Shown here piece after piece: positions 4,723 to 29,738 of a stretch of DNA of 41,422 nucleotides. Below the pieces are notes generated by a model. The model saw nothing but the letters and a program-made list of their open reading frames with translations. It had not been told where the DNA came from and made no database searches. The first letter of the stretch is position 1; the number at the start of each line of letters is the position of its first letter. Location: contig JANQOC010000717.1 in assembly GCA_028279265.1 (NCBI GenBank), positions 1 through 41,422 of the forward strand, in the 5' to 3' direction. Source of the stretch: Hyphomicrobiales bacterium (GTDB lineage Bacteria; Pseudomonadota; Alphaproteobacteria; Rhizobiales; CAYWUX01). Position numbers and translations under genes: made by a program.

Positions 4723-5685
4723 ATGCCTACTCCAAGCGATACTTTCACGGAAATGGTTTCCACGACACTGCGACACCACGAACGAAGTGTCGCTGACAAC
4801 GTGACCAACCATAATGCGCTTCTTCGCTACATGAAGGAACACAACAACATCAAAACTGACGCCGGCGGCGGCTATGAAATCGCCATTCCGCTGAGCTACG
4901 CGGAAAACGAGACCTATCAGCGTTTTCATGGCGGGGAAATCCTGGATATTTCCGACAGCGATGTCCTGACGACCGCCAAGTTTGACTGGCGTCAGGTCGC
5001 TTTGCACGTCACGACCACCGGTCGCGATCTTAAACTGAACCGCGGCAAAGCCCAGTTGATCAATCTGGTGAAAGCCCGGGTTCAGGTAGCCATGGACACG
5101 GCTGCGAACAACATGTCGGTGGATATTTATTCCGATGGCGCCTTATCCAACCAGATTGGCGGTTTGCAGCATATCATTCAATCCGGCGGGCAGGGGACCG
5201 TTGGCTCGATTAATTCGGCCACATGGACCTTTTGGAGAAACCAGGTTCGGGAAATGTCCGATCCGACCGCCTTCGCCTCCCTGAAAGCCGATATGAACCT
5301 GATGTGGTTGTCCTGCGTCCGCGGTATGGACAAGCCGGATCTCATTGTCTTCTCCCATGACCTTTATTCGGTCTATGAGGGCGGGCTTCAGGATCTCCAG
5401 CGATATGCGGATTCAAAGGCGGCCGGTCTTGGGTTTGAAAGCCTGAAGTACAAATCCGCTTCTCTCATTTTCGACGATAATACCAACTTCGGAACGACCG
5501 CTGAAAGAGGATATTTCCTAAATACGAAATATCTCTACATGCAGCAACACCCCGAAGCCCAATGGGATGAGGATGAGAAGAAAATTCCGATCAACCAGGA
5601 CAAGATTGTTCTGCCGATTTACTGGATGGGCGAGATGTGTTGCTCAAACCGTAAACGTCAGGGCGTCATGGTCGATCTGGCCTAA
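4723..5685 (+). CDS. Major capsid protein (putative)
   Basis: 320-aa ORF directly after the scaffold gene, followed by a stable hairpin. Size and synteny (terL-portal-...-scaffold-this gene) fit. The fold was not verified. Confidence 0.75.
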   Translation: MPTPSDTFTEMVSTTLRHHERSVADNVTNHNALLRYMKEHNNIKTDAGGGYEIAIPLSYAENETYQRFHGGEILDISDSDVLTTAKFDWRQVALHVTTTGRDLKLNRGKAQLINLVKARVQVAMDTAANNMSVDIYSDGALSNQIGGLQHIIQSGGQGTVGSINSATWTFWRNQVREMSDPTAFASLKADMNLMWLSCVRGMDKPDLIVFSHDLYSVYEGGLQDLQRYADSKAAGLGFESLKYKSASLIFDDNTNFGTTAERGYFLNTKYLYMQQHPEAQWDEDEKKIPINQDKIVLPIYWMGEMCCSNRKRQGVMVDLA

Positions 5686-5757: not shown

Positions 5758-6258
5758 ATGACGACAGAAGTTTTTGCCCAAGGGCATCCGGCGGGGGCAA
5801 ATTTCAACCAAGTTGATAATTCCGCATCCGCTGAATACAAGGTCGGCACATGCGCCATGGGCTCTAATGGGGGCCAATGGATGTATGTTCAGGCTTCCGG
5901 ATCCCTCGCTATTAACTCTTTGGTGGCGATTGATGAGGATTTCACCGCCCGCGTGGCCACATCGGCCCTTGCTGGGGCTGGCGACAAGCCTGGATGGCCG
6001 CAAGTGGCGATCCCGGATAATTCTTATGGCTGGGCCGCCCTGGATGGGTCTGAAATCAACGGTTTGGTGGCGGGCTCATGTGCGGCGGACACCAAGCTTT
6101 ATGTGGGTTCTACCGGTGTGACCGCGGGGGTTCTGGACGATGCCAGCGCCACCGGCCGGGTTACGGTCCAGGGGGCTGTGGCTGTAACGGCCAATTCAAC
6201 ATCGGCCGATGCTGCCGTTGAGCTAAAGGTGACAAATCCGGTCTTCCTGGACGTTTAA
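5758..6258 (+). CDS. Small Ala/Gly/Thr-rich capsid-associated protein (possible decoration/cement protein)
   Basis: 166-aa ORF with SD-like gaggatttgaaaaATG, between the capsid gene and a strong terminator. Beta-rich composition. The role is inferred from position. Confidence 0.5.
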   Translation: MTTEVFAQGHPAGANFNQVDNSASAEYKVGTCAMGSNGGQWMYVQASGSLAINSLVAIDEDFTARVATSALAGAGDKPGWPQVAIPDNSYGWAALDGSEINGLVAGSCAADTKLYVGSTGVTAGVLDDASATGRVTVQGAVAVTANSTSADAAVELKVTNPVFLDV

Positions 6259-6268
6259 TTGGGGACCT

Positions 6269-6309
6269 GACCCGGGCGGTGGGGGCATCACGCCCGGGTC
6301 TTTTTTTTT
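6269..6309 (+). terminator. Rho-independent terminator
   Basis: Perfect 10-bp stem gacccgggcg/cgcccgggtc with a 12-nt loop, followed by T9. Confidence 0.85.
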
Positions 6310-6312
6310 AGG

Positions 6313-7695
6313 ATGAACATGAAAACACAAGTTAAATTCAAAAGCGGTCTGAACACTTCGGAAGATGTATTTCTCGACAATACGCGGGCGAATATTGAGA
6401 AATACGGCCATTTAATCCCGACTTATTCCACGAAAAAGGCACTCATTTGTGGCGGCGGACCCAGCCTCGAAGACTGGATCGAGGAGATCCGTGATTTGAA
6501 AGATGCGGGCTGGACGATATTCGCGCTGAACGGGGTTGCCAGATATCTCTATGAAGAACACCAGATCATTTCCGACTGGCAGTTGGTGATTGACGCCAGG
6601 CCGGAGAATATAGAATTCATTGGCGATTTCTGGGCTGAAAATATCGCTTTGGGGTCACAAGTTGACCCCCAATTATTCGAAAAAGCCATTGCGAGTCAAT
6701 CGAATGTGGTCATGGTTCATTGCATGGCGGTCAAGGGAAGTCTTGATTTGATTCGCGAATTACACCCCGGTAACACGGTTTTGGGGGGTGGATCGACGGT
6801 CGGCATGATGGCCATGAATTTCATTTCGTCCGCCGGTTATGCCAAGGCGAAACTCTATGGATTTGATTCATCCCACCGGGAAGACAAAAAACACCCCTAC
6901 ACCCAGCCGTTGAACGAAGATCAGCCGGTGATTGATTTCATCTTCAATAAGCAATCGTTCAAATCATCCGGGCCGATGGCCTCACAAGCCCAACAGTTCA
7001 TCACCTATTGGAAGGTCTGGGCCAACAAGGGGCTCGAATTCGATATCAGGGGCGATGGACTACTTCCAACCATGTGGCGCTATGTCCAGGCCATTGAGGA
7101 ATTTGGATCCACCGAAGACCGGGAGCTGATCAAGTACGAAAAAGTCTGGCGCATGGACAATTACCGGAAATACTCACCCGGCGAAGACTTCTGGGATCAC
7201 TATCAGCATCACATCCCCCGGGACGCCAGAACTGTCGCTGATTTTGGCTGTGGAACCGGACGTATTGTCGCGAAAATCAACGAGTTGGGACCGGCTTACA
7301 TAGGGATCGATCACGCTACAAATTGTTTAGATGATGGAGCCAAGGATCTCATTGACACCCATCCCAATGAATTTATCCCGGCCAATCTCTGGCAATTCAA
7401 AGGACGCCTGTTTGACTTCGGGCTTTGTTGTGACGTGATGGAGCATATCCCCGCCTGGAAGATGGATGACACTCTTCAGGCGATTGCGCGATCCGTGCGG
7501 AAAGGCGCAATATTTACCATTTGTTGCGCCCCTGATGTCTTTGGGGAACGGGTCGGGGAAACTTTGCATATGAATGTGATGCCGCCGGATCAGTGGGTTG
7601 GGAGAATAGCTCTGCATTTTGGCTTTGCGGAAGAGATTTATGCCGAAGGCCCGAACGTGGTCATTGCGGCAAGAAAAGAGGGAACGGGATTATGA
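6313..7695 (+). CDS. Fusion protein: N-terminal DUF115/MptE-like (Maf-type glycosyl/nonulosonate transferase-like) domain plus C-terminal class I SAM-dependent methyltransferase
   Basis: N-terminal motifs: LICGGGPSL, IFALNG, DWQLVIDAR, GGGSTVGMMAMNFISSAGYAKAKLYGFD. C-terminal motifs: VADFGCGTGRIV (motif I) and LCCDVMEHIP. The start may be ATG 6319. Confidence 0.7.
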   Translation: MNMKTQVKFKSGLNTSEDVFLDNTRANIEKYGHLIPTYSTKKALICGGGPSLEDWIEEIRDLKDAGWTIFALNGVARYLYEEHQIISDWQLVIDARPENIEFIGDFWAENIALGSQVDPQLFEKAIASQSNVVMVHCMAVKGSLDLIRELHPGNTVLGGGSTVGMMAMNFISSAGYAKAKLYGFDSSHREDKKHPYTQPLNEDQPVIDFIFNKQSFKSSGPMASQAQQFITYWKVWANKGLEFDIRGDGLLPTMWRYVQAIEEFGSTEDRELIKYEKVWRMDNYRKYSPGEDFWDHYQHHIPRDARTVADFGCGTGRIVAKINELGPAYIGIDHATNCLDDGAKDLIDTHPNEFIPANLWQFKGRLFDFGLCCDVMEHIPAWKMDDTLQAIARSVRKGAIFTICCAPDVFGERVGETLHMNVMPPDQWVGRIALHFGFAEEIYAEGPNVVIAARKEGTGL

Positions 7696-7988
7696 CCATA
7701 GAAATCGTTGATATTTACACCAAAGGCACGCCAAAAACAGACGAAAAAGGCGAACCCATCCTGGCGAAGATGATCGTTTATCGCCCCAAACGTCACGGTC
7801 CGGAGATCACGGAAGCCTCCGAAAAGGATCTGCAACAGCGCCCAGGCTGGCGGGTGTTTGCCAAGCATATTGCGAAGTTCGAGGCCAAGAACGCCCCGGC
7901 TGAGAAACCGAAAAAGGCTAAGGCGAAGCGGAAATCGAAAAAGAAAGACGCCCAAATCGATCTGGAGGAAGCTATAGCCGAGGCTTGA
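7693..7988 (+). CDS. Small head-module protein with a polybasic C-terminus
   Basis: ATG 7693 overlaps the upstream stop (ATGA). MTIEIVDIY...KPKKAKAKRKSKKKD. The 5' extension to 7593 in the track overlaps the upstream gene. Confidence 0.6.
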
Positions 7989-8046
7989 CCAGGTTTGCGA
8001 ATAAGCGCAAGGGCCATTCATCAATAGTTTGCGGGGACAAGATAAC

Positions 8047-8682
8047 ATGACAATACGGGTACATAAATTCTGGACAACATTCGCCCCGGATCCCAAGGAT
8101 CCCGAGAAGTTAAGGGGTGTGGATATGGTTGCTTATCATTCCATCGGTCAGGCCCAATATTCGGTTCAGATCGAGGCGGTTTCCAGGTTGTCCAAACTCA
8201 TCCCTTTGGAGGGGAATGAGGATAATATTGCCGTTGTCATGGCCCATGATCGTTGGAACCAGATCAAGGGGCCTTATGATGCGTTCAAACATGGGAATGA
8301 ACTACCTGAAGACGGAACACCTTTGGCTGCTTGGTCGGGATTGACGCCGGAACAGGCCGATGAAGTGCGCCGCCAGGGGATCCGCACCGTCGAAGAGTTT
8401 GCCGAGCTGCCGGAAAATGTCGTCAATCGCCTACCCATGCAACATGGCAAAAAACACCAAGCCATTGCCAAGACCTGGCTCGCGACCCTGAAGGATCAGG
8501 CCCAGGCTGACCAGATGGAAGAAATGAAAGCCCAGGCCCAGGCTCAGGAACAGGAATTGGCCGAACTTCGGGAAACACTTGCGCGTATGCAGCAAGCCGC
8601 CGGTGACCCGACAGGGGAAGCAATTCATCCTGTTGAAGAGGAAACACCGAAGAAGGCGACACGCAAGAAGAAAGCTGCCTAA
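8047..8682 (+). CDS. Head-module protein with an HhH-like segment, coiled coil and basic tail
   Basis: ATG 8047 (the track start 8029 is TTG). LTPEQADEVRRQGIRTVEEFAELPENVVNRLP..GKK resembles a helix-hairpin-helix. QAQAQEQELAELRETLARMQ is a coil. It ends PKKATRKKKAA. Confidence 0.55.
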   Translation: MTIRVHKFWTTFAPDPKDPEKLRGVDMVAYHSIGQAQYSVQIEAVSRLSKLIPLEGNEDNIAVVMAHDRWNQIKGPYDAFKHGNELPEDGTPLAAWSGLTPEQADEVRRQGIRTVEEFAELPENVVNRLPMQHGKKHQAIAKTWLATLKDQAQADQMEEMKAQAQAQEQELAELRETLARMQQAAGDPTGEAIHPVEEETPKKATRKKKAA

Positions 8683-9393
8683 ATGCCGACAACGATCCTG
8701 ACATTGGGCGAAAACATCGCCCTTCAGATCTCGATGGCCAAGCCGACGACGTTGACTGACAGCGATACGGTCACAAACCACGGCGAAAAGATCCTTTTGC
8801 ATCTCCATCGCACATGTCGGGGTTTGGCTGGGGCCCATGACTGGCAGCGCTTGCGCCGGGAAGAAACTTTCACGACTGTAGCGGCGGAAACCCAAACCGA
8901 CACGCTGCCCGCGGATTTTCTCAGGCACATCCAGGGAACATTTTGGAACCGTACCGACCGCCGGCCGGTGATTGGTCCCTTAACACCGCAGGAATGGCAA
9001 TATTTGAAAGCCCAGGTGACCGGTGGCGTCGAAGATCAGTTCTATCAGAGAAACAATGATCTCCTGATCTATCCCGCGCCTTCGGCCGGGGAAACCATGG
9101 CCTTTGAGTACATCACCAAAATGATCGGCCTGGCCACGGACAACACGACCGAACGGGAGCTTTTCACCGTCGATACGGATTACACCTATTTCGATGATGA
9201 GCTGGTTATTCTCGGGGCCGCCTGGTCTTACAAGCAATCCGAGGGATTAGATTATTCCGAAGAGATGAATTCCTTCGAATTGCGCTTTTACGACATGGTG
9301 AAAGCCGACGGTGGCATCAGTGACAGAAATGCCGCCGGCAAGATGTATCAGCGCGAGATTAAACCAAAATTCCAGGAATATATTTCGTCATGA
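8683..9393 (+). CDS. Head-to-tail adaptor / tail tubular protein A-like (by position)
   Basis: 236-aa ORF with its ATG directly after the upstream stop, ATGA-coupled to the next gene. First of the tail genes; no family verified. Confidence 0.4.
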   Translation: MPTTILTLGENIALQISMAKPTTLTDSDTVTNHGEKILLHLHRTCRGLAGAHDWQRLRREETFTTVAAETQTDTLPADFLRHIQGTFWNRTDRRPVIGPLTPQEWQYLKAQVTGGVEDQFYQRNNDLLIYPAPSAGETMAFEYITKMIGLATDNTTERELFTVDTDYTYFDDELVILGAAWSYKQSEGLDYSEEMNSFELRFYDMVKADGGISDRNAAGKMYQREIKPKFQEYISS

Positions 9394-10937
9394 TTATGAG
9401 GGCGCCGGTTCGGCAAAATCGACGCCGGGCCAAGACAAACACCGTCAAATGGGCCAAGCCCCCATCAAGGGGATGGAACGCCAAGGACGATCTGGCGGAC
9501 ATGCACCCCCAGGATGCGGTGGTTCTCGATAATCTCATTCCAACCGAATCGGGCGTGAACGTCAGGAAGGGGAAGGCCAGCCATGTTACAGGCATCGGAT
9601 CGACCATTCGCTCCATGTTCAAACATCCGGGAATTGACGGATCTTATAAGTTTTTCGCTGCCACCGCCGACGCGGTTTATGAGGTATCGTCCGCGGGCGC
9701 CGTAGGGGCGGCGGATCTTTCCTCATTATCAAATGGTAACTGGCTCGGCACCATGATGGAAACATCCGGGGGTAATTTCTGGTGCATGGTGAACAATGCG
9801 GATGGGTTCCGCACCTATGACGGGTCGAGCTGGGCCACACAAACGATTACAGGTGTTGATGCAAACGATCTTGTCAGCCTGCATTCGCATATGTCGCGGA
9901 TCTGGGGGGTTGAAAGGGATACGCTTAACGCCTGGTATTTACCTGTTGATAGCATCGCCGGCGCCATGACGAAATTTCCCCTTGGGGGGCTATCCAGAAA
10001 AGGGGGATATCTCGTTGCTATTGCCTCATGGACCCGGGACGGTGGCGAAGGCCTGGACGATGTCTGTTGCTTTATCACCTCGGAAGGTGAAGTCCACATC
10101 TATTCGGGAACGGATCCAAGTTCTGCGTCCACCTGGTCCCGGGTCGGCACCTTCGACATAGCCAAACCAATTGGCCGAAAATGTGTCCGCGGCGCCGGTC
10201 CGGATTGCGCCATTCTGACCAGTATAGGCTTACTACCTTTATCCGCAGCTATCGGGCTTGCGAGATCGGCCCAGGCGAATGTGGCCGTCACCGATGGGAT
10301 AAGAAAAGCCTTTCAAACTCAATATGAGGGGCAAAAAGACAATACCGGTTGGGAGATCACGGAGTTTTCTTCGGAAAACCTGGTGATTGTGAACGTTCCC
10401 ATCGTCGATGGGCTCACCTATTACCAGTATGTGATGAACATTCGAAACCGGGGCGCCTGGTGCCGGTTCAAGAACTTTAACGCCCATGCCTTCCTGGAAG
10501 TGGACGATGAATTGTATTTCGGGGACGTGGACGGAACGATCTGGAAGTACGACGGTAACGACGATGACGGATCGGCGATAGATGTGTTTGTTGTCCAGGC
10601 CTATCAACATTTTGGCAGCTCTAACGAAAAGGTGTTCCATAGGATTCAACCAAGATTCTTTGGACCGCCGGGTTATGCGCCGTCCATTGGGCTCAGGATA
10701 GATTTCGACGAAACCGACATCACTTATCCCGCCGCCGCTTATACAGCCCCCGGCTCTTACTGGGATGAAGAGGAATGGGATCTCGCCGTCTGGGGGGTTG
10801 GGCAGGTGGCGAATGAGCTTTGGCAGGGGGTTTCCGGAAAAGGCTTTGTGGCGGCGATCATTTTTTCCGCGAGCCTCGATGAACCCCTGACATTTAACGG
10901 GGCGCGGATATCCTTTACTCAGGGGGATGGGATTTGA
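9390..10937 (+). CDS. Tail nozzle / tail tubular protein B-like (by position)
   Basis: 515-aa beta-rich ORF ATGA-coupled to the adaptor-like gene. No tube, sheath or tape-measure genes occur anywhere, which suggests a short tail. Confidence 0.4.
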   Translation: MIMRAPVRQNRRRAKTNTVKWAKPPSRGWNAKDDLADMHPQDAVVLDNLIPTESGVNVRKGKASHVTGIGSTIRSMFKHPGIDGSYKFFAATADAVYEVSSAGAVGAADLSSLSNGNWLGTMMETSGGNFWCMVNNADGFRTYDGSSWATQTITGVDANDLVSLHSHMSRIWGVERDTLNAWYLPVDSIAGAMTKFPLGGLSRKGGYLVAIASWTRDGGEGLDDVCCFITSEGEVHIYSGTDPSSASTWSRVGTFDIAKPIGRKCVRGAGPDCAILTSIGLLPLSAAIGLARSAQANVAVTDGIRKAFQTQYEGQKDNTGWEITEFSSENLVIVNVPIVDGLTYYQYVMNIRNRGAWCRFKNFNAHAFLEVDDELYFGDVDGTIWKYDGNDDDGSAIDVFVVQAYQHFGSSNEKVFHRIQPRFFGPPGYAPSIGLRIDFDETDITYPAAAYTAPGSYWDEEEWDLAVWGVGQVANELWQGVSGKGFVAAIIFSASLDEPLTFNGARISFTQGDGI

Positions 10938-11458
10938 TCCTCACCGCAGATCGATCAAAAGAGGTGGCCGAATGGGTCCAAAAAAGATGTGGGGGCGAAT
11001 TCACTTTACCCGTGGGCGTTTATCAAACCCTTGCGCTGATCGACAGGGACGAAATCGTCGCCGGCACAATCTGGTTCGCCTACACGGACACAGATATTTC
11101 CCTGTCATTAGCCGTCAAGTCCGGAACGATGATCCGCCGCGCAGTTGTGCATGATGCCTTTCATTATCCTTTCGTGCAACTGAACTGCAACCGGGTCAGC
11201 GCAGAAGTTTTGTCATCGAATCGAAAATGCCTAAAGATATTAAAAATTCTAGGTTTCCAGCGTGAAGGGATAAAGCGGGAGGCCGGCCCGGATGGTGAAG
11301 ATGTCGAGATCTGGGGATTGTTGAAAAGCGATTTTGCGCGGAAAGGTTTCACCTATGAAAGCCCCATCCCAGCCAAAAGCCCCGGACGCAAGAGCCACAG
11401 CCGCGGCCGATCAGGCGGGCAATGTGGGCACGGCTATAGCCCAAACGGCGCTCAATAA
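10934..11458 (+). CDS. GNAT-fold (RimJ/RimL-like) acetyltransferase-like protein
   Basis: TTG start overlapping the upstream stop (TTGA). C-terminal GNAT-like pattern NRVSAEVLSSNRKCLKILKILGFQREGIKREAGPDGEDVEIWGLLKSDF. The last ~100 nt overlap the next gene. Confidence 0.5.
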   Translation: MILTADRSKEVAEWVQKRCGGEFTLPVGVYQTLALIDRDEIVAGTIWFAYTDTDISLSLAVKSGTMIRRAVVHDAFHYPFVQLNCNRVSAEVLSSNRKCLKILKILGFQREGIKREAGPDGEDVEIWGLLKSDFARKGFTYESPIPAKSPGRKSHSRGRSGGQCGHGYSPNGAQ

Positions 11459-12542
11459 CGCCAACGAAGTTTCGCCCTTTGGGAATGTGAATTACGACAT
11501 CACGGGACATCAGACGGTTAAGGATGCCCAGGGCAATGATATTTCGGTCCCGACCTATACCCGGACCCAAACCCTTTCTGAAGACGAACAAGCCAAACTC
11601 GACCTTGAAAACCGGATTGCCCTTCAGTCCGGTGGTATTGCCGAAGATCAACTGGGGCGGTTAGAACAATCGCTGGCCACGCCAATTACCCTTGATGATC
11701 TTCCGGCAGCCGGCGTTTATGATCCCGACCGCTACGAGGCGGCGCTGTTTGAACGGCTTAACCCGCAACTCGACCGGGATCGCGCCGCGCTGGACACACA
11801 ATTAGCTAATCAAGGCATTAAACTGGGATCTGAAGCTCACCAAGACGCCATGCGAGTGCGCCAGCAGGGGGAAAACGATGCCCGCATTGCGACGATACTC
11901 GGAGCGCAACAGTACGGTCTAAATGATGTCGCCGCCGCCGATACCTCCCGGGAGCGGCGTTTGCAGGAAAATCTGGCGGTTAGAAATCAGCCCCTAAATG
12001 AGATTTCAGCCCTGATGTCCGGCAACCAGGTGAACATGCCGCAATTCTCCCAGTTCCGCGCCGGGACCATTGCCCCGACATCGGTTGGGGACAACATCTG
12101 GCGCGGCTATGATGCCGACATGCAGGCTTATAATCTACAACAGCAAAACCGTAATGCCATGATGGGCGGGCTTTTTGGATTGGGAAGCTCGTATATCGAG
12201 AGCCCTCACAGCGCCGCATCGCCGATATTTATGGCCTCCATGGCAGAACTAAAGACGGATATTGCCGAGCCCAAAGATTTTCTGGCGCGGCTTGATGAGC
12301 TGGATGTGAAAACCTGGCGTTATTCCCCGTCGGCCCAGATGGAATTAAAACTGGATGGGGAACTTCATATCGGCCCCATGGCCGACCAATGGAAGGAACT
12401 CTTCGGCGGTGACGGCCGGCAGATCAATCTAATCGATGCCAACGGGGTCTTGTTTCAGATCTGCAAAGAGCTGTTGCACTATCTCGACCACGTGGAAGCC
12501 CGGGTTCAGGAATTGGAAGGGGAGCTGGGAATATGCCGGTAA
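11355..12542 (+). CDS. Coiled-coil virion protein with a C-terminal S74-type intramolecular chaperone (auto-cleaving) domain; tail needle/plug or internal protein candidate
   Basis: ATG 11355 with SD ggaaagg. C-terminus: S-MAELKTDIAEPKDFLARLDELDVKTWRY...HIGPMADQWKELFG...IDANGVLFQICKELLHYLDHVEARVQELE matches the endosialidase / L-shaped tail fibre chaperone pattern. Confidence 0.7.
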   Translation: MKAPSQPKAPDARATAAADQAGNVGTAIAQTALNNANEVSPFGNVNYDITGHQTVKDAQGNDISVPTYTRTQTLSEDEQAKLDLENRIALQSGGIAEDQLGRLEQSLATPITLDDLPAAGVYDPDRYEAALFERLNPQLDRDRAALDTQLANQGIKLGSEAHQDAMRVRQQGENDARIATILGAQQYGLNDVAAADTSRERRLQENLAVRNQPLNEISALMSGNQVNMPQFSQFRAGTIAPTSVGDNIWRGYDADMQAYNLQQQNRNAMMGGLFGLGSSYIESPHSAASPIFMASMAELKTDIAEPKDFLARLDELDVKTWRYSPSAQMELKLDGELHIGPMADQWKELFGGDGRQINLIDANGVLFQICKELLHYLDHVEARVQELEGELGICR

Positions 12543-18317: not shown

Positions 18318-19154
18318 ATGTCCAAGAAATTCCAGGTTTACGAAGAATTCGTCAAACCCCAGCGAAAAGTCCATACGGCCTTCATTCATTGTTCGGCTAA
18401 TTCGAACCCCAAATGGGGCGTCGAAGAGTGCTATCACCTTCATGCTGTGACCAATGGCTGGGGCGATATCGGTTATCACGTTTTTGTTGAACGTGATGGA
18501 ACGGGTTATCTCGGGCGCGATTGGGAAAAGGTTCCTTATGCCCAGGCGCCGTTTAACACGGGTTCCATCGCCATTTGCCTGGATGGCGGCCAATATGGAA
18601 AAGATGATTTCACGGATGAACAGATCGCTTTCGTCCAGCGGATCATGCACGATATCGACCGCGCCTATGATGGGAAATTGAAATGGAAGGGCCACCGGGA
18701 AGTCAAGCCAGGCCGGGCCTGTCCGGCCTTCGATTATCACACCAGATTGCATATTTCCAAGACCGGTAATTATCTCGGGGGTGTGGCGACCAAGAAGAAA
18801 CTCAGGGAAGCCGGATCGGAAACCATCAAAGCGGCTGACCGGAACGACGACGTGGCCACGGGCTGCGCGGTGCTGGCGGCGGCCGGCGGCGGTAATGCGG
18901 TGGTCAACGGTCCACCGGAACCCAGTGCCTTGGAAAAAGCCACAAGCCTAGCCGCGGATGCGACCGCCTGGAAGCAAACCATGAACACGGGCGCGGAACT
19001 CTTATCCTGGGCTTCCGTCAACTGGTGGCTGGTTCTGGCGGCTTTTGCAGCCGTATTAATCTACAAGAACCGTAAGCTGATCCGGGCACGGCTCAATGAC
19101 GAAACCAAGATTGGAAGATTGTTTCAATGGGATGGATCGCCTCAATCGGCCTGA
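18318..19154 (+). CDS. N-acetylmuramoyl-L-alanine amidase (T7 lysozyme / PGRP, Amidase_2 type) with a C-terminal transmembrane segment
   Basis: Motifs IHCSANSN, GWGDIGYHVFVERDG, NTGSIAICLDGG and GHREVKPGRACPAFDY. C-terminus: WWLVLAAFAAVLIYKNRKLIRARL. Confidence 0.85.
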   Translation: MSKKFQVYEEFVKPQRKVHTAFIHCSANSNPKWGVEECYHLHAVTNGWGDIGYHVFVERDGTGYLGRDWEKVPYAQAPFNTGSIAICLDGGQYGKDDFTDEQIAFVQRIMHDIDRAYDGKLKWKGHREVKPGRACPAFDYHTRLHISKTGNYLGGVATKKKLREAGSETIKAADRNDDVATGCAVLAAAGGGNAVVNGPPEPSALEKATSLAADATAWKQTMNTGAELLSWASVNWWLVLAAFAAVLIYKNRKLIRARLNDETKIGRLFQWDGSPQSA

Positions 19155-22462: not shown

Positions 22463-22632
22463 AACTTTCCCTTTTGCTTATCCTTCAGGGCTCGCCAGAT
22501 CATTCGCGCCTTCGCCGGATCAACTTTTCGCGTAGCTCGGAAGTTGATTGCCAACTGCTTGCGCTGGGCCGCGATTTCCGGGATGGCTTTATATTCCCGG
22601 TACATGGTTTCCGTGGGAATGTGCTTTTTCAT
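22459..22632 (-). CDS. Small basic protein (57 aa), translationally coupled to the recombinase
   Basis: Hand-translated: MKKHIPTETMYREYKAIPEIAAQRKQLAINFRATRKVDPAKARMIWRALKDKQKGKL. Its ATG overlaps the recombinase TGA (ATGA). Confidence 0.55.
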   Translation of the reverse strand: MKKHIPTETMYREYKAIPEIAAQRKQLAINFRATRKVDPAKARMIWRALKDKQKGKL

Positions 22633-23252
22633 GTTTCTAAAACACTTCTTTCAAAACGTTTGTAGGTTTTTCCGTTTCCCACCTCTTCGGATGTTAAACT
22701 ATTCCGTTTCAAAAAGCGCCATAGGGTTGAGCGGGAAACGCCGACTATTTTTGCAATATCGGATAAACCGGTATCTGCTTCCAAAAGCTGGATGACGGCC
22801 CGCTGTTTATCGAGCGTCATGGCCGCCGGCCGGCCGAATTTTGCCCCGCGCTGCCGGGCCGCCGCCAGTCCGGCCTGAATTCGCTCGTTTGTCATTTCGC
22901 GCTCGAACTCGGACAAGATCATCAGAAGGTTAAACATCAACTTGCCGGTCGCCGTCTGAGTGTCGATCTTTTCCTTCAGGCTTTCGAACTCGATACAGTT
23001 CTCCCGAAAGTGGTCGGTCAACTTCAAAAGGTCTCGAAGGGATCGAGCCAATCGGTCCAATTTCCAGACAATGATTTTATCGCCAGGCTTGACCTTCTTC
23101 AGCATCTTGTTTAGCTCTTTGCGGTCTTTCGTATATCGACCGCTGAACTTGTCTGTAAAGATTTCGTCACAGTCGGCAGCCTTCAGGGCGTCAATCTGAA
23201 GATCCAGCCGTTGATCTTCGGTGGATACGCGGGCGTAGCCATATACAGTCAT
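22629..23252 (-). CDS. Small serine recombinase (resolvase/invertase family)
   Basis: YGYARVSTEDQ (catalytic Ser), GDKIIVWKLDRLARS, and the C-terminal HTH DIAKIVGVSRSTLWRFLKR. 207 aa. Confidence 0.9.
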   Translation of the reverse strand: MTVYGYARVSTEDQRLDLQIDALKAADCDEIFTDKFSGRYTKDRKELNKMLKKVKPGDKIIVWKLDRLARSLRDLLKLTDHFRENCIEFESLKEKIDTQTATGKLMFNLLMILSEFEREMTNERIQAGLAAARQRGAKFGRPAAMTLDKQRAVIQLLEADTGLSDIAKIVGVSRSTLWRFLKRNSLTSEEVGNGKTYKRFERSVLET

Positions 23253-28236: not shown

Positions 28237-28265
28237 CCATAAGTTTATTCGCGGACTAATGTCAA
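28237..28265 (-). promoter_or_regulatory. Promoter candidate TTGACA-N17/18-TTATGGT for the Gp157/recT operon, overlapping the 13-mer motif
   Basis: The minus strand reads cccTTGACAttagtccgcgaataaacTTATGGTtcacc, directly after terminator 28279..28312. Confidence 0.5.
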
Positions 28266-28278
28266 GGGCTTTTTCCAC

Positions 28279-28312
28279 AAAAAAACGGGGCCGTCTATCC
28301 GCCGACGGCCCC
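28279..28312 (-). terminator. Rho-independent terminator after the Acb2-like gene
   Basis: ggggccgtc/gacggcccc 9-bp stem. The minus strand continues TTTTTTT. Confidence 0.8.
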
Positions 28313-29360: not shown

Positions 29361-29738
29361 ATGCAGGAAACAAAGTGGAAACCCCATATTTTCAATGCTG
29401 CCAAGCGTATGTGGCTCGACGGACGGTCGGGTCAGTATATTGCTTTGCAATTAGGGAATGGGCTGTCATCGTCGGCCGTTGTCTCAAAAATGAACCGGGA
29501 AGGCCTGGCCAGGGATCCGGCAAAACGGATTAAGAAAAAACGGGTTTATGATCCCGCCAAATACGTCAAGAAAAAGCGTTATGTTACCCCGGATCCCTGG
29601 GTCATTCCAAAGCGCCCCCGCCATGCTCGGGGCAAGCACGCTAGTTCCGAGTGGTATAAGAATTGTAATTTCGCTTTTGCTCAAAAGATGGCCCGCGCGG
29701 GTTATCTGCCGGTGTTTCCAGACTGGGTTTATGCATGA
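29361..29738 (+). CDS. GcrA-like cell-cycle regulator N-terminal domain protein
   Basis: W(K)PHIFNAAKRMWLDGRSGQYIALQLGNGLSSSAVVSKMNREGLAR aligns with the GcrA N-domain W.....LkklW.eG.SasqIA..LG.gvSRnAViGKvhRlGL. The C-terminus is not GcrA-like. Confidence 0.6.
   Translation: MQETKWKPHIFNAAKRMWLDGRSGQYIALQLGNGLSSSAVVSKMNREGLARDPAKRIKKKRVYDPAKYVKKKRYVTPDPWVIPKRPRHARGKHASSEWYKNCNFAFAQKMARAGYLPVFPDWVYA

Follow-up and report, generated by a model that had tools for sequence, protein, structure and literature searches.

To our knowledge, glycosylation of the capsid has been established among tailed phages only for some mycobacteriophages, where it alters antibody recognition. The glycosyltransferases of these mycobacteriophages are conventional GT-A/GT-B enzymes that use UDP- or GDP-sugars. 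In Che8, Rita and others (Freeman et al. 2023, as described in PMC11256854 and PMC12582341), phage-encoded glycosyltransferases place glycans covalently on capsid proteins, forming a glycan shield, and in the related phage Maravista the genes for putative glycosyltransferases are found outside the head module, close to the genome's 3' end (PMC11256854). This system is the closest in concept to the one described below, but its hosts are Gram-positive actinobacteria, its reported target is the major capsid protein, and it is not known to include a fused methyltransferase. A fusion of that kind occurs in chlorovirus PBCV-1, whose protein A064R has the architecture rhamnosyltransferase-rhamnosyltransferase-methyltransferase, and whose C-terminal class I SAM domain O-methylates the sugar just added to the virus's own capsid glycan (PMC9614988). 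A064R is the best functional analogue of a glycosyltransferase-methyltransferase fusion; it differs in belonging to a eukaryotic giant virus, in combining GT-A-like and new-family GT domains, and in using UDP-rhamnose for an N-linked glycan, and its transferase parts are not homologous to the enzyme considered here.

Our other comparisons were with cellular enzymes: the Maf flagellin nonulosonic-acid O-glycosyltransferases (M. magneticum Maf 5MU5, C. botulinum CbMaf, G. kaustophilus GkMaf, Aeromonas Maf1 and Campylobacter PseD/PseE/Maf4), the GT42 enzymes Cst-I and Cst-II of C. jejuni, and archaeal MptE (8SD5). Maf has a degenerate N-terminal Rossmann domain and a C-terminal helical/TPR domain that binds flagellin, and is encoded in flagellar glycosylation islands together with NulO biosynthesis genes. 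By mutagenesis, MmMaf E324, MmMaf D415 and a conserved Ser (CbMaf S334) are essential (bioRxiv 10.1101/2020.06.03.131540), and Maf enzymes accept CMP-Neu5Ac and CMP-Kdo as donors (PMC11339370). Cst-II acts on lipo-oligosaccharide, not on protein, and has no methyltransferase.

We analyzed a phage locus within a window of 41,422 nt, which is the whole stretch of DNA considered in this study (Table 1). The ORF at 6313..7695 (+) encodes a 460-aa protein in which a sequence-only reading had recognized a DUF115/MptE-like domain followed, in the same chain, by a class I SAM methyltransferase. All of the motifs quoted in that reading were present in the translation: LICGGGPSL (aa 44-52), IFALNG (69-74), DWQLVIDAR (88-96), GGGSTVG...YGFD (158-185), VADFGCGTGRIV (308-319) and LCCDVMEHIP (371-380). 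Both domain assignments were upheld as well. Pfam PF01973 (MptE-like/DUF115/Maf_flag10) matched aa 20-189 over profile positions 3-169 of 171 (E=8.3e-15; 55.4 bits versus a cutoff of 34.6). Four methyltransferase families matched aa 304-403 above their cutoffs, namely Methyltransf_23 (34.0 versus 27), _25 (33.7 versus 27), _11 (33.1 versus 21.2) and _12 (31.5 versus 30), and the SAM-binding residues D310-x-G312-x-G314, D333 and D374/E377/H378 were invariant in the 79 sequences of the family alignment. The second ATG of the ORF, at position 6319, has a better Shine-Dalgarno spacing and may be the real start.

Table 1. Features of the head module around the enzyme gene. Positions are those of the window; functions resting on profiles, models or position are predictions.
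Feature	Position	Strand	Basis
Major capsid protein, Mx8 p48 type	4723..5685	+	phrog_9953 'major head protein', E=4.2e-76
Predicted capsid decoration (cement) protein, 166 aa, Mx8 p49 position	5758..6258	+	Model fold; position after capsid gene
Intrinsic terminator (attenuator) between decoration and enzyme genes	6269..6309	+	G+C-rich hairpin and nine U; -24.5 kcal/mol, z=-2.9
N-terminal Maf-like (PF01973/DUF115, GT42-related) domain, predicted nucleotide-sugar transferase	6313..7098	+	aa 1-262; Pfam, PDB profile match, conserved residues, predicted structure pLDDT 94
C-terminal class I SAM-dependent methyltransferase domain with N-terminal cap helices	7099..7695	+	aa 263-460; Pfam, invariant residues, Foldseek
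98-aa lysine-rich ORF, ATGA overlap with enzyme stop codon	7692..7988	+	No Pfam, PHROG, NCBIfam or PADLOC match
p50-like head-completion region protein, downstream edge of insertion slot	8029..8682	+	phrog_20268
Head-to-tail adaptor, SU10 adaptor family	8683..9393	+	PF24175, E=1.2e-8; phrog_6013, E=8e-34

When the model of the full-length protein was compared with the PDB, the top Foldseek matches were all SAM methyltransferases (E ~1e-9) and carried no information on the N-domain; the relatives of this domain were judged by family-profile searches against PDB sequences. These searches grouped it with Maf 5MU5, the best match (E=8e-16 and 1.3e-14), and not with an unrelated fold. The alignment to Maf, which covered Maf residues 243-433, placed D94 opposite MmMaf E324 and D185 opposite MmMaf D415, and both phage positions were Asp in 79 of 79 sequences. 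T162 aligned with MmMaf T392, which was taken as the counterpart of CbMaf S334 on spacing alone; this position was Thr in 41 and Ser in 26 of the 79 sequences (Ser or Thr in 67). H194 and Q198 were conserved and common to Maf. The phage enzyme and Maf thus share the PF01973/Maf_flag10 domain, a GxGPS nucleotide-binding loop, two acidic residues, a Ser/Thr, a His and a Gln. In contrast, the phage enzyme lacks both outer domains of the 666-aa Maf and carries an intact SAM methyltransferase instead, and its gene lies in a head module.

The match to GT42 was weak (Cst-II sialyltransferases, E ~1e-3 to 1e-2) but in register over aa 42-202, which is consistent with a distant homolog: GGGPS aligned with GNGPS, N73 with the Asn of RCNQ, and G183/D185 with the Gly/Asp of GID. 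We take the aligned Asn and Asp of Cst-II to be N31 and D154. The phosphate-binding Tyr residues of Cst-II, presumably Y156 and Y162, aligned with Ser187 and His194 of the phage enzyme, and the alignment gave no counterpart for the catalytic His. This relationship suggests the same type of donor for the phage enzyme, a CMP-activated acidic sugar. With MptE, the phage enzyme has in common the Pfam family and the N-terminal nucleotide-binding Rossmann part, whereas its catalytic core is Maf-like and its context includes nothing related to pterin or folate.

The two domains of the fusion are functionally linked, and they were found in both orders, DUF115-MTase and MTase-DUF115. Homologs of the methyltransferase half in Planctomycetes were fused to TPR proteins, one of them (L163) with a match to a GT9-like glycosyltransferase, and the cellular gene contexts of standalone homologs in Chlamydiae and Verrucomicrobia were uninformative. 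The idea that the MTase-then-DUF115 order corresponds to the N-terminal and central domains of canonical Maf was dropped, as there was no sequence-level match of the methyltransferase to the Maf N-domain. NCBIfam gave nothing above cutoff for the window protein, including no match to the PseD equivalog (NF050051); a relative, P0142, scored 26 bits versus a cutoff of 670. Because PADLOC likewise gave nothing above cutoff for the enzyme, we concluded that it is not a known defense or anti-defense component. Literature searches that paired DUF115, MptE-like, Maf or nonulosonic acid with phage or capsid turned up nothing relevant, one apparent match being to DUF1156.

The sequence-only reading had placed the gene between the capsid/decoration genes and the head-completion/tail genes, and PHROG and Pfam matches on both sides, together with the decoration fold upstream, agreed with this placement. 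The capsid protein shared 33-45% identity with its counterparts in Mx8, Mx9, Bradyrhizobium phage ppBjS10J-1 and MW202489; tail genes followed downstream of the SU10-type adaptor. The p50-like protein had homologs in 98 loci, which lay after the enzyme gene or, where that gene was absent, straight after the decoration gene. The 98-aa lysine-rich ORF had been described as a polybasic protein ATGA-coupled to the enzyme, and the overlap is indeed seen in the sequence; the ORF itself had no homolog in any of 220 fetched loci. Because it is not conserved, this neighbor is probably not part of the enzyme system.

The terminator upstream of the enzyme gene consisted of a hairpin (GACCCGGGCG...CGCCCGGGTC) followed by nine T. 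Its outer loop lay beyond the limit of our promoter/terminator scan, and the region was folded directly. The stability obtained confirmed that this terminator is strong, but not that it is the strongest, as had been claimed: in our own scan of the window it ranked second to a minus-strand hairpin at ~28284 that reached -28.9 kcal/mol. The overall counts of the promoter/terminator scan equaled the shuffle expectation, and that scan was uninformative. The 54-nt gap before the enzyme gene is filled by the terminator, leaving no space for a promoter. T-run hairpins occurred at the same position in 20 of 71 non-redundant relatives, and the stems listed for them mostly differed in sequence.

We then surveyed the fusion among phages. 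It was found on at least 518 IMG/VR viral contigs from freshwater, marine and soil metagenomes; neither the 50,697 deposited phage records nor isolate genomes contained it, and the enzyme gene is carried by no phage in culture. The slot after the decoration gene was fixed in ~80 divergent IMG/VR phages whose capsid proteins were 29-46% identical to that of the window. Related fusions also lay in the head module of an HK97-type phage (L214), adjoining a collagen-repeat protein, and in that of a phage whose capsid protein is of the PF09950 type (L216), so that three phage lineages, each with a capsid family unrelated to the others, had the fusion in their head modules. In a further locus (L154), an MTase-DUF115 protein was accompanied by a second methyltransferase, an NAD-dependent sugar epimerase and UDP-galactopyranose mutase, all between a capsid-proximal small ORF and the adaptor. 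Co-occurrence of the fusion with capsid genes, a check proposed in the sequence-only reading, was thus borne out by the fixed slot and the two further lineages, as well as by the co-divergence reported below. Other cargo of the slot received no glycosyltransferase assignment from Pfam or PHROG; this included a 270-aa ORF (L218) that had appeared GT-A-like by eye and that we do not count as a glycosyltransferase. Among the 64 closest capsid relatives of the window, 62 were without the enzyme gene. Because most of these relatives lack the gene, and because the decoration family also exists without it, the gene is accessory and the modification dispensable.

The gene that precedes the enzyme corresponds in position to Mx8 p49, which is annotated as a virion structural protein. 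The AlphaFold model of its 166-aa product (pLDDT 91) had its top matches among decoration or cement chains, namely Pam3 8hdt_G (Foldseek E=1.8e-4, TM 0.56) and Sf11 9ocb (3.8e-4); further matches were to such chains of HFTV1, TW1, Adjutor and T1 and to the base of the phi29 gp8.5 head fiber (probability ~1.0, TM 0.45-0.56). Judged by this predicted fold and by its position, the protein is a putative capsid decoration protein, and its family was present in 106 loci. Distances among enzymes correlated strongly with distances among decoration proteins (rho=0.86, n=63; 0.82-0.86 across comparisons), and the divergence of the enzyme did not track that of the capsid protein (rho 0.30) or the adaptor (0.26). 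In partial correlations, the enzyme-decoration value given the capsid was 0.84, versus 0.01 for enzyme-capsid given the decoration protein. For the 26 phages with all five genes, the decoration protein correlated with the N-domain at 0.83 and with the methyltransferase at 0.48; within the same set the values were 0.26 for enzyme-adaptor, 0.29 for enzyme-p515 and 0.09 for enzyme-capsid, and the core structural genes inter-correlated at 0.44-0.70. The pattern was also visible in individual phages. Three loci with capsid proteins 37-41% identical to that of the window (L218, L219, L220) had decoration proteins 54-61% identical, and phages without the fusion whose capsid proteins were 52-72% identical to the window's had decoration proteins that were at most 37% identical or undetectable. 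Three substrates had been proposed from the sequence (the capsid protein, the 166-aa protein and the adhesin), and the co-divergence favors the 166-aa protein among them. The same co-divergence could reflect joint transfer of the two genes as a cassette instead of an enzyme-substrate relation.

Our preferred reading, to which we assign a probability of roughly 0.55, is that of an accessory enzyme made late and in small amounts, which uses a CMP-ulosonic acid of the host to O-glycosylate the decoration protein and then methylates the glycosylated product. Behind the genes for the capsid and decoration proteins, which are expressed abundantly, transcription would read through the attenuator and yield the enzyme at catalytic and not structural levels. 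As donor, the host would provide an ulosonic acid in CMP-activated form, which could be pseudaminic or legionaminic acid, sialic acid, or the Kdo that every Gram-negative cell makes as CMP-Kdo. The Maf-like domain would transfer the sugar to Ser/Thr of the decoration protein in the cytoplasm, while the head is being assembled or earlier. The fused methyltransferase would then methylate the transferred sugar or, less likely, the adjacent protein. The outcome would be a chemically altered capsid surface bearing methylated acidic sugars. Because Maf and the phage enzyme have the fold and the catalytic residues in common, the predicted chemistry is that of Maf, in which Ser/Thr of a protein destined for surface exposure is O-glycosylated in the cytoplasm with a CMP-ulosonic acid. 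Supply of the donor is assumed, because Pfam detected no flagellar, NulO/Kdo biosynthesis or sugar-nucleotide pathway genes across the window. A point against this reading is that the protein is without the two outer domains of canonical Maf, one of which binds flagellin. The virion-protein modification that had been proposed from the sequence is supported by every part of it that can be computed (domains, catalytic positions, slot and co-divergence); glycosyl transfer as the reaction, its donor and acceptor, the methylation target and the biological benefit are what we infer from these.

We asked how well the evidence fits other readings. The enzyme might modify another virion protein than the decoration protein, such as the capsid protein, the tail fibers or adhesin, or Ser/Thr-rich or collagen-like fiber proteins, and the co-divergence would mark a recombination cassette. 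In L214 the related enzyme lies beside the collagen-repeat protein and not beside a recognizable decoration protein, a ~119-aa Ser/Thr-rich ORF directly follows the enzyme in 18 loci, and the mycobacteriophage glycans are on the major capsid protein (PMC11256854). Neither the Ser/Thr-rich ORF nor the collagen-like protein, however, is present in the window. The Ser/Thr fraction of the decoration proteins was higher with the enzyme (0.205) than without it (0.176), a significant difference but one that phylogeny confounds, and in the window the protein is not especially Ser/Thr-rich (0.163). A per-column Ser/Thr contrast between proteins with and without the enzyme was significant in both directions and confounded by clade structure; it serves here only to nominate S49, S54, S118, T132 and S149 as candidate modification sites. 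Against a different acceptor, the N-domain tracked the decoration protein (rho 0.83) and not the capsid protein (0.08-0.09) or the adaptor (0.25-0.26), whose genes are equally close or closer. We consider a different virion acceptor unlikely.

We regard it as unlikely, too, that the enzyme acts on the host. Its target would be an envelope glycoconjugate (LOS, LPS or capsule, as for GT42) or flagellin (as for Maf), and the effect would be to block superinfection or the trapping of progeny on debris; alternatively, the enzyme might enter the cell with the virion and serve as an early effector, in the manner of T4 Alt and P1 Dar, which are packaged and injected. All characterized relatives act on components of the cell, Maf on flagellin and Cst-II on LOS, the gene has been gained and lost often in the manner of lysogenic-conversion or moron genes, and the window also encodes a recombinase and RecT. 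However, the gene has no promoter of its own and lies in a late structural operon behind an attenuator, which makes expression in a lysogen unlikely, and the flagellin-binding C-terminal domain of Maf is absent from the shorter phage protein. A fixed head-module slot in three unrelated lineages and co-divergence with a capsid decoration protein would also be unexpected for such an enzyme. Finally, the mean divergence of the enzyme was the same as that of the structural genes, which argues against a recent acquisition from bacteria.

The fold alone is no proof of glycosyl transfer, because PF01973 also includes the pyrophosphokinase MptE. The N-domain might accordingly be a kinase or pyrophosphokinase (MptE-like) or another nucleotide-using enzyme, acting together with the methyltransferase on a small molecule or nucleic acid, for example in DNA or RNA modification around packaging. 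PF01973 is named for the archaeal 6-hydroxymethyl-dihydropterin pyrophosphokinase, the N-domain profile matched 8SD5 (E=4e-6 and 3.8e-5), one family member carries a DSPc phosphatase domain, and the best PDB matches of the methyltransferase half were small-molecule N-/O-methyltransferases such as phosphoethanolamine N-methyltransferase. Yet the MptE match was confined to aa 10-96, whereas the Maf match spanned the catalytic core with an E-value better by nine to ten orders of magnitude, and the catalytic residues known from Maf were invariant. Moreover, sugar-nucleotide enzymes lie alongside the fusion in L154, and this type of methyltransferase is the one fused to the GT9-like protein of Planctomycetes. 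These results leave a function other than glycosyl transfer improbable. DNA hypermodification in particular was rejected, since no DNA-hypermodification, hydroxymethylase or pterin genes were found in the window and the gene lies in the head module, outside the replication module.

Glycosylation of the decoration protein by a Maf-like enzyme may belong to a wider pattern, which we put forward tentatively and at somewhat less than even odds. There would exist a widespread, unrecognized class of phage capsid modification in which Maf-type enzymes place an O-linked, methylated nonulosonic or octulosonic acid on decoration proteins, a kind of sialylation in bacterial form; the decoration and enzyme genes would form a mobile two-gene cassette among environmental Mx8-like podoviruses, and in unrelated lineages the counterparts of the enzyme, with MTase and DUF115 domains, would act on other structural proteins. 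We found no description of capsid modification by a Maf-type enzyme. The name 'MptE-like diphosphokinase', which databases assign automatically to the phage proteins, is probably misleading and, if our reading is true, the labels '6-hydroxymethylpterin diphosphokinase MptE-like' and 'DUF115' would have to be corrected.

That the enzyme diverged in step with the decoration protein, and not with the capsid protein, indicates that a candidate substrate of an orphan modifying enzyme can be named from comparative genomics alone. E. coli already contains CMP-Kdo, so that the enzyme system is directly testable there, and if the preferred reading is true, enzyme and acceptor would make a compact two-gene system of possible use in glyco-engineering. 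The decoration protein would then be the first non-flagellin substrate for Maf enzymes, and a Maf/GT42-like, CMP-ulosonic-acid-dependent and methyltransferase-coupled enzyme class would act on the decoration proteins of a large set of uncultured phages. If the wider pattern holds, phages of Gram-negative bacteria can coat their heads with acidic sugars drawn from the nucleotide sugars of the host.

We translated the ORF at the center of this analysis into a 460-residue protein, and all the motifs that the sequence-only reading had quoted for it were found. That reading had described a DUF115/MptE-like N-terminus joined to a SAM methyltransferase, and Pfam supported both parts above its cutoffs: PF01973 (MptE-like/DUF115/Maf_flag10) covered residues 20–189 (E = 8.3e-15; 55.4 bits vs. 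a cutoff of 34.6), and four class I methyltransferase families, each above cutoff, matched residues 304–403. PHROGs matched only the methyltransferase half, and no curated model in NCBIfam or PADLOC covered the enzyme. Two in-frame ATG codons occur at its start (6313 and 6319), and an AGGA abuts the first and lies 5 nt 5' of the second; from this spacing, translation may start at residue 3.

Genes of the head module surrounding the enzyme gene
Feature	Coordinates	Strand	Evidence or context
Major capsid protein	4723..5685	+	phrog_9953, E = 4e-76; 5' of enzyme gene
166-aa ORF	5758..6258	+	between capsid gene and enzyme gene
Enzyme gene	6313..7695	+	Pfam PF01973 and four methyltransferase families
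98-aa basic (lysine-rich) ORF	7692..7988	+	overlaps enzyme stop codon by ATGA
p50-like protein gene	8029..8682	+	3' of 98-aa basic ORF
SU10-type adaptor gene	8683..9393	+	PF24175; tail genes also downstream

Pfam and PHROGs matches confirmed the claimed location of the gene between the capsid/decoration genes and the head-completion/tail genes, and its ATGA coupling to a polybasic ORF was evident in the sequence. The basic ORF had no family match and no homolog among the 220 loci fetched from relatives, so it is either restricted to this phage lineage or very fast-evolving. The capsid protein shared 33–45% identity with its counterparts from Myxococcus phages Mx8 and Mx9, Bradyrhizobium phage ppBjS10J-1, Stenotrophomonas phage BUCT555 and an uncultured Manatee Spring phage. 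Gene order followed that of Mx8 (p47 scaffold, p48 capsid, the 162-aa virion structural protein p49, p50, p51 adaptor, p52), with the DUF115-methyltransferase gene and the basic ORF as extra genes between the p49-like and p50-like genes.

Directly after the adaptor gene, where Mx8 carries p52 (a ‘phage stabilization protein’ in MW202489), the ORF at 9390..10937 (+) matched phrog_5107, which is labeled ‘amidase / lysis’ (E = 7e-113). Because of this position and the co-divergence of its product with the adaptor (rho 0.70), the label is probably a propagated annotation error; the genuine amidase of the window lies at 18318..19154. Elsewhere the window encodes a small serine recombinase, RecT, a GcrA-like regulator, an amidase and an S74-chaperone tail fiber, and its remainder contained no sugar-nucleotide, nonulosonic-acid or DNA-hypermodification genes. 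The recombinase (22629..23252, −; Resolvase and HTH_7) is 207 aa long, which fits a DNA invertase or resolvase and not a large serine integrase; no clear integrase was found in the window. The GcrA-like cell-cycle regulator domain (29361..29738, +; E = 4e-5, slightly under the Pfam cutoff) hints at an alphaproteobacterial host, and MAG bins with enzyme-carrying phage contigs include Rhodobacteraceae, Phenylobacterium and Rhodospirillaceae.

The fusion proved nearly confined to unnamed records and uncultured phages, and its function has thus gone undescribed so far. Its N-domain (residues 1–262) was absent from all 50,697 deposited phage records. A 90%-clustered database gave 382 fusion matches, nearly all unnamed and at best 42–44% identical, and an exhaustive search of 50% representatives returned 135 matches at E ≤ 1e-30 and 2,530 at E ≤ 1e-3, the weaker of which include proteins similar to one half only. 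At least 518 stretches in IMG/VR encode a relative. Among 185,579 species-representative genomes, the full fusion occurred in no isolate genome and on only about six short MAG contigs, three of which (L156–L158) have phage gene order. BFVD holds similar ‘MptE-like’ proteins of uncultured Caudovirales under automatic names only, and no account of DUF115 or Maf within phage head modules turned up in our literature searches.

The co-occurrence with capsid genes that had been proposed for study was borne out by a fixed slot. Of 80 IMG/VR loci fetched via the fusion (31–36% identity to the query), 72 had the capsid gene ~0.5–1 kb upstream of the enzyme gene, with a single small ORF (155–183 aa) between the two, and ~75 had the adaptor and p515 genes downstream. 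The enzyme gene is accessory: it was missing from 62 of the 64 slot-covering loci fetched via the capsid protein (52–72% identical), a full fusion being present in L146 and a DUF115-only gene in L098. Related fusions also occurred in the structural modules of independent phage lineages. L214, with an HK97-type capsid (PF05065) and a PF04860 portal, carries an MTase-MTase-DUF115 gene (10001-11986), just upstream of which lies a 559-aa collagen-repeat protein (7651-9330); elsewhere, collagen-like fibers typically serve as substrates for glycosylation. In L216 a DSPc-MTase-DUF115 gene lies 2.2 kb 3' of the capsid gene (PF09950), and the same module includes a Phage_cement protein and Mu-F. In L215 the ORFs preceding a DUF115-MT24-DUF115 protein are 329, 324 and 172 aa long, sizes that fit an Mx8-like pattern. 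In two loci (L154, 1147-9285; L155, 838-8976), the interval from the capsid-proximal small ORF to the adaptor holds a glycan-gene cassette encoding a 1,049-aa MTase-DUF115 protein with ~600 uncharacterized C-terminal residues, a 304-aa methyltransferase, a 274-aa NAD-dependent sugar epimerase/dehydratase and a 381-aa UDP-galactopyranose mutase.

The 166-aa ORF encodes a member of a conserved family, which transitive BLAST detected in 106 loci, both enzyme-carrying and enzyme-less. The fold of its model (pLDDT 91) matched capsid decoration/cement proteins of Pam3, Sf11, HFTV1, TW1, Adjutor and T1, as well as the base of the phi29 head fiber. We compared pairwise distance matrices by Spearman correlation in 63 non-redundant phages, and in a second set of 26 phages having all five genes.

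Co-divergence of the enzyme with head-module proteins (Spearman rho)
Pair	63 phages	26 phages
Enzyme vs. decoration	0.86	
Enzyme vs. decoration, partial given capsid	0.84	
Enzyme vs. capsid	0.30	0.09
Enzyme vs. capsid, partial given decoration	0.01	
Capsid vs. decoration	0.35	
Decoration vs. N-domain		0.83
Decoration vs. MTase half		0.48
Enzyme vs. adaptor		0.26
Enzyme vs. p515		0.29
Capsid vs. adaptor		0.68
Adaptor vs. p515		0.70
Capsid vs. p515		0.44

The decoration gene is equally near the capsid and enzyme genes, and the adaptor gene is close downstream; linkage alone is therefore not enough to explain the enzyme-decoration correlation. The decoration-capsid tie was loose (0.10 in enzyme-carrying and 0.36 in enzyme-less phages). 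In three enzyme-carrying loci (L218, L219, L220), capsid proteins were 37–41% and decoration proteins 54–61% identical to the window's, whereas 59 enzyme-less loci with capsids 52–72% identical had decoration proteins that were ≤37% identical or undetectable by BLAST. The Maf-like domain thus co-evolves, and is co-transferred, with the decoration protein. In relatives, HNH homing-endonuclease genes inserted in the capsid/decoration region (L218 4712-5434, phrog_374, E = 2e-68; L043 6933-7367 and L050 6928-7383, both assigned by eye) may promote mosaic exchange of this pair.

We consider the decoration protein the likely acceptor, and co-divergence is the strongest argument available for it, short of proof because a cassette could be transferred without any enzyme-substrate relation. 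Exploratory candidate sites on it are S49, S54, S118, T132 and S149, a set confounded by phylogeny. That the enzyme modifies another virion protein instead is unlikely. Directly 3' of the enzyme gene, 18 enzyme-carrying loci have a Ser/Thr-rich ORF of ~119 aa (~25% Ser+Thr; e.g., L083 9284-9643, L023 9191-9550, L029 3057-3783), which matched neither Pfam nor PHROGs and is missing from the window; its product could be a further acceptor, or the acceptor in place of the decoration protein.

The gene's expression was also considered. Direct folding of 6269..6309 gave a hairpin with nine U after a G+C-rich stem (−24.5 kcal/mol), which a consensus promoter/terminator scan of the window did not list because of its loop length. 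It had been called the strongest terminator, but it ranked second in our own hairpin and T-run scan of the window, the one point on which the original observation did not hold; the top structure (~28240..28290, −; −28.9 kcal/mol) ends the leftward early-gene block. The terminator takes up the 54-nt gap 5' of the enzyme gene, leaving no space for a promoter. A hairpin and T-run occupied the same gap in 20/71 non-redundant relatives, and the stems listed there were mostly dissimilar in sequence. The gap hairpins fit an attenuated, late expression of the enzyme. A host target for the enzyme, or its injection as an effector, seems quite improbable.

Family alignment A1 (79 sequences) was used for the enzyme's structure model (pLDDT 94.4, pTM 0.88) and for conservation counts. 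Ranking family profiles against sequences of solved structures, a check of the kind the earlier reading had called for, placed M. magneticum Maf (5MU5) first (8e-16 using the full profile and 1.3e-14 using that of the N-domain alone), ahead of the archaeal MptE pyrophosphokinase 8SD5 (4e-6 and 3.8e-5, over residues 10-96 only) and then the GT42 sialyltransferases Cst-II (~1e-3 to 1e-2, in register over residues 42-202). An MptE-like reaction other than glycosyl transfer is accordingly ranked as very improbable. In MmMaf, E324 and D415 are essential, and CbMaf and GkMaf likewise depend on a conserved Ser (bioRxiv 10.1101/2020.06.03.131540). By HMM alignment, E324 and D415 correspond to D94 and D185 of the enzyme, each Asp in 79/79. 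Maf T392, by spacing alone the probable equivalent of that Ser, aligned with T162 (Ser or Thr in 67/79), and Maf H424 and Q428 with H194 (77/79) and Q198 (79/79). In the methyltransferase half, D310-x-G312-x-G314, D333 and D374/E377/H378 were invariant, and it should therefore bind SAM. With these residues conserved, both halves look catalytically competent.

The two families, carrying the same motifs, were fused in either order (DUF115-MTase and MTase-DUF115), some fusions having a second DUF115, Methyltransf_24, a DSPc phosphatase or ~600 more residues. Homologs of the methyltransferase half also form the C-terminal domains of ~1,025-aa Planctomycete TPR proteins. Such TPR-linked homologs (31–37% identical) lie at L163 5580-8654, L181 5514-8600 and L162 78-1904. 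The L163 protein had an additional GT9-like match and looks like an uncharacterized protein-glycosyltransferase/methyltransferase architecture whose glycosyltransferase is unrelated to DUF115; L181 and L162 gave TPR and methyltransferase only. The occurrence of this methyltransferase type with two kinds of fused transferase suggests that its substrate is the partner's product. PBCV-1 A064R offers a precedent, in that its third domain adds an O-methyl group to the capsid glycan's terminal sugar (PMC9614988). The transferase module can exist separately, since DUF115-only genes occur alone in the enzyme slot (L098 3496-4302, 268 aa, without a methyltransferase) or as a second copy of 255 aa after the full fusion (L012, L013).

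In the mechanism we propose, read-through of the attenuator would yield the enzyme late and at a low level. Its Maf-like domain would draw on a host CMP-ulosonic acid, given that Maf enzymes use CMP-Neu5Ac and CMP-Kdo besides their native donors (PMC11339370), and would O-glycosylate the decoration protein, after which the methyltransferase would methylate the transferred sugar. The benefit could be a surface shield, by analogy with mycobacteriophages (PMC11256854). The enzyme, a PF01973 member, is predicted to work in the manner of a Maf, but it departs from the Maf flagellin glycosyltransferase family in architecture and gene context, and we therefore do not class it as a Maf. Phage-encoded enzymes that glycosylate virions were already known, as was a viral glycosyltransferase-methyltransferase fusion acting on a capsid glycan. 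What is new is a Maf-like class in a proposed virion-modifying role, encoded within the head module, together with the pairing of such an enzyme with a decoration protein and its abundance in uncultured phages.
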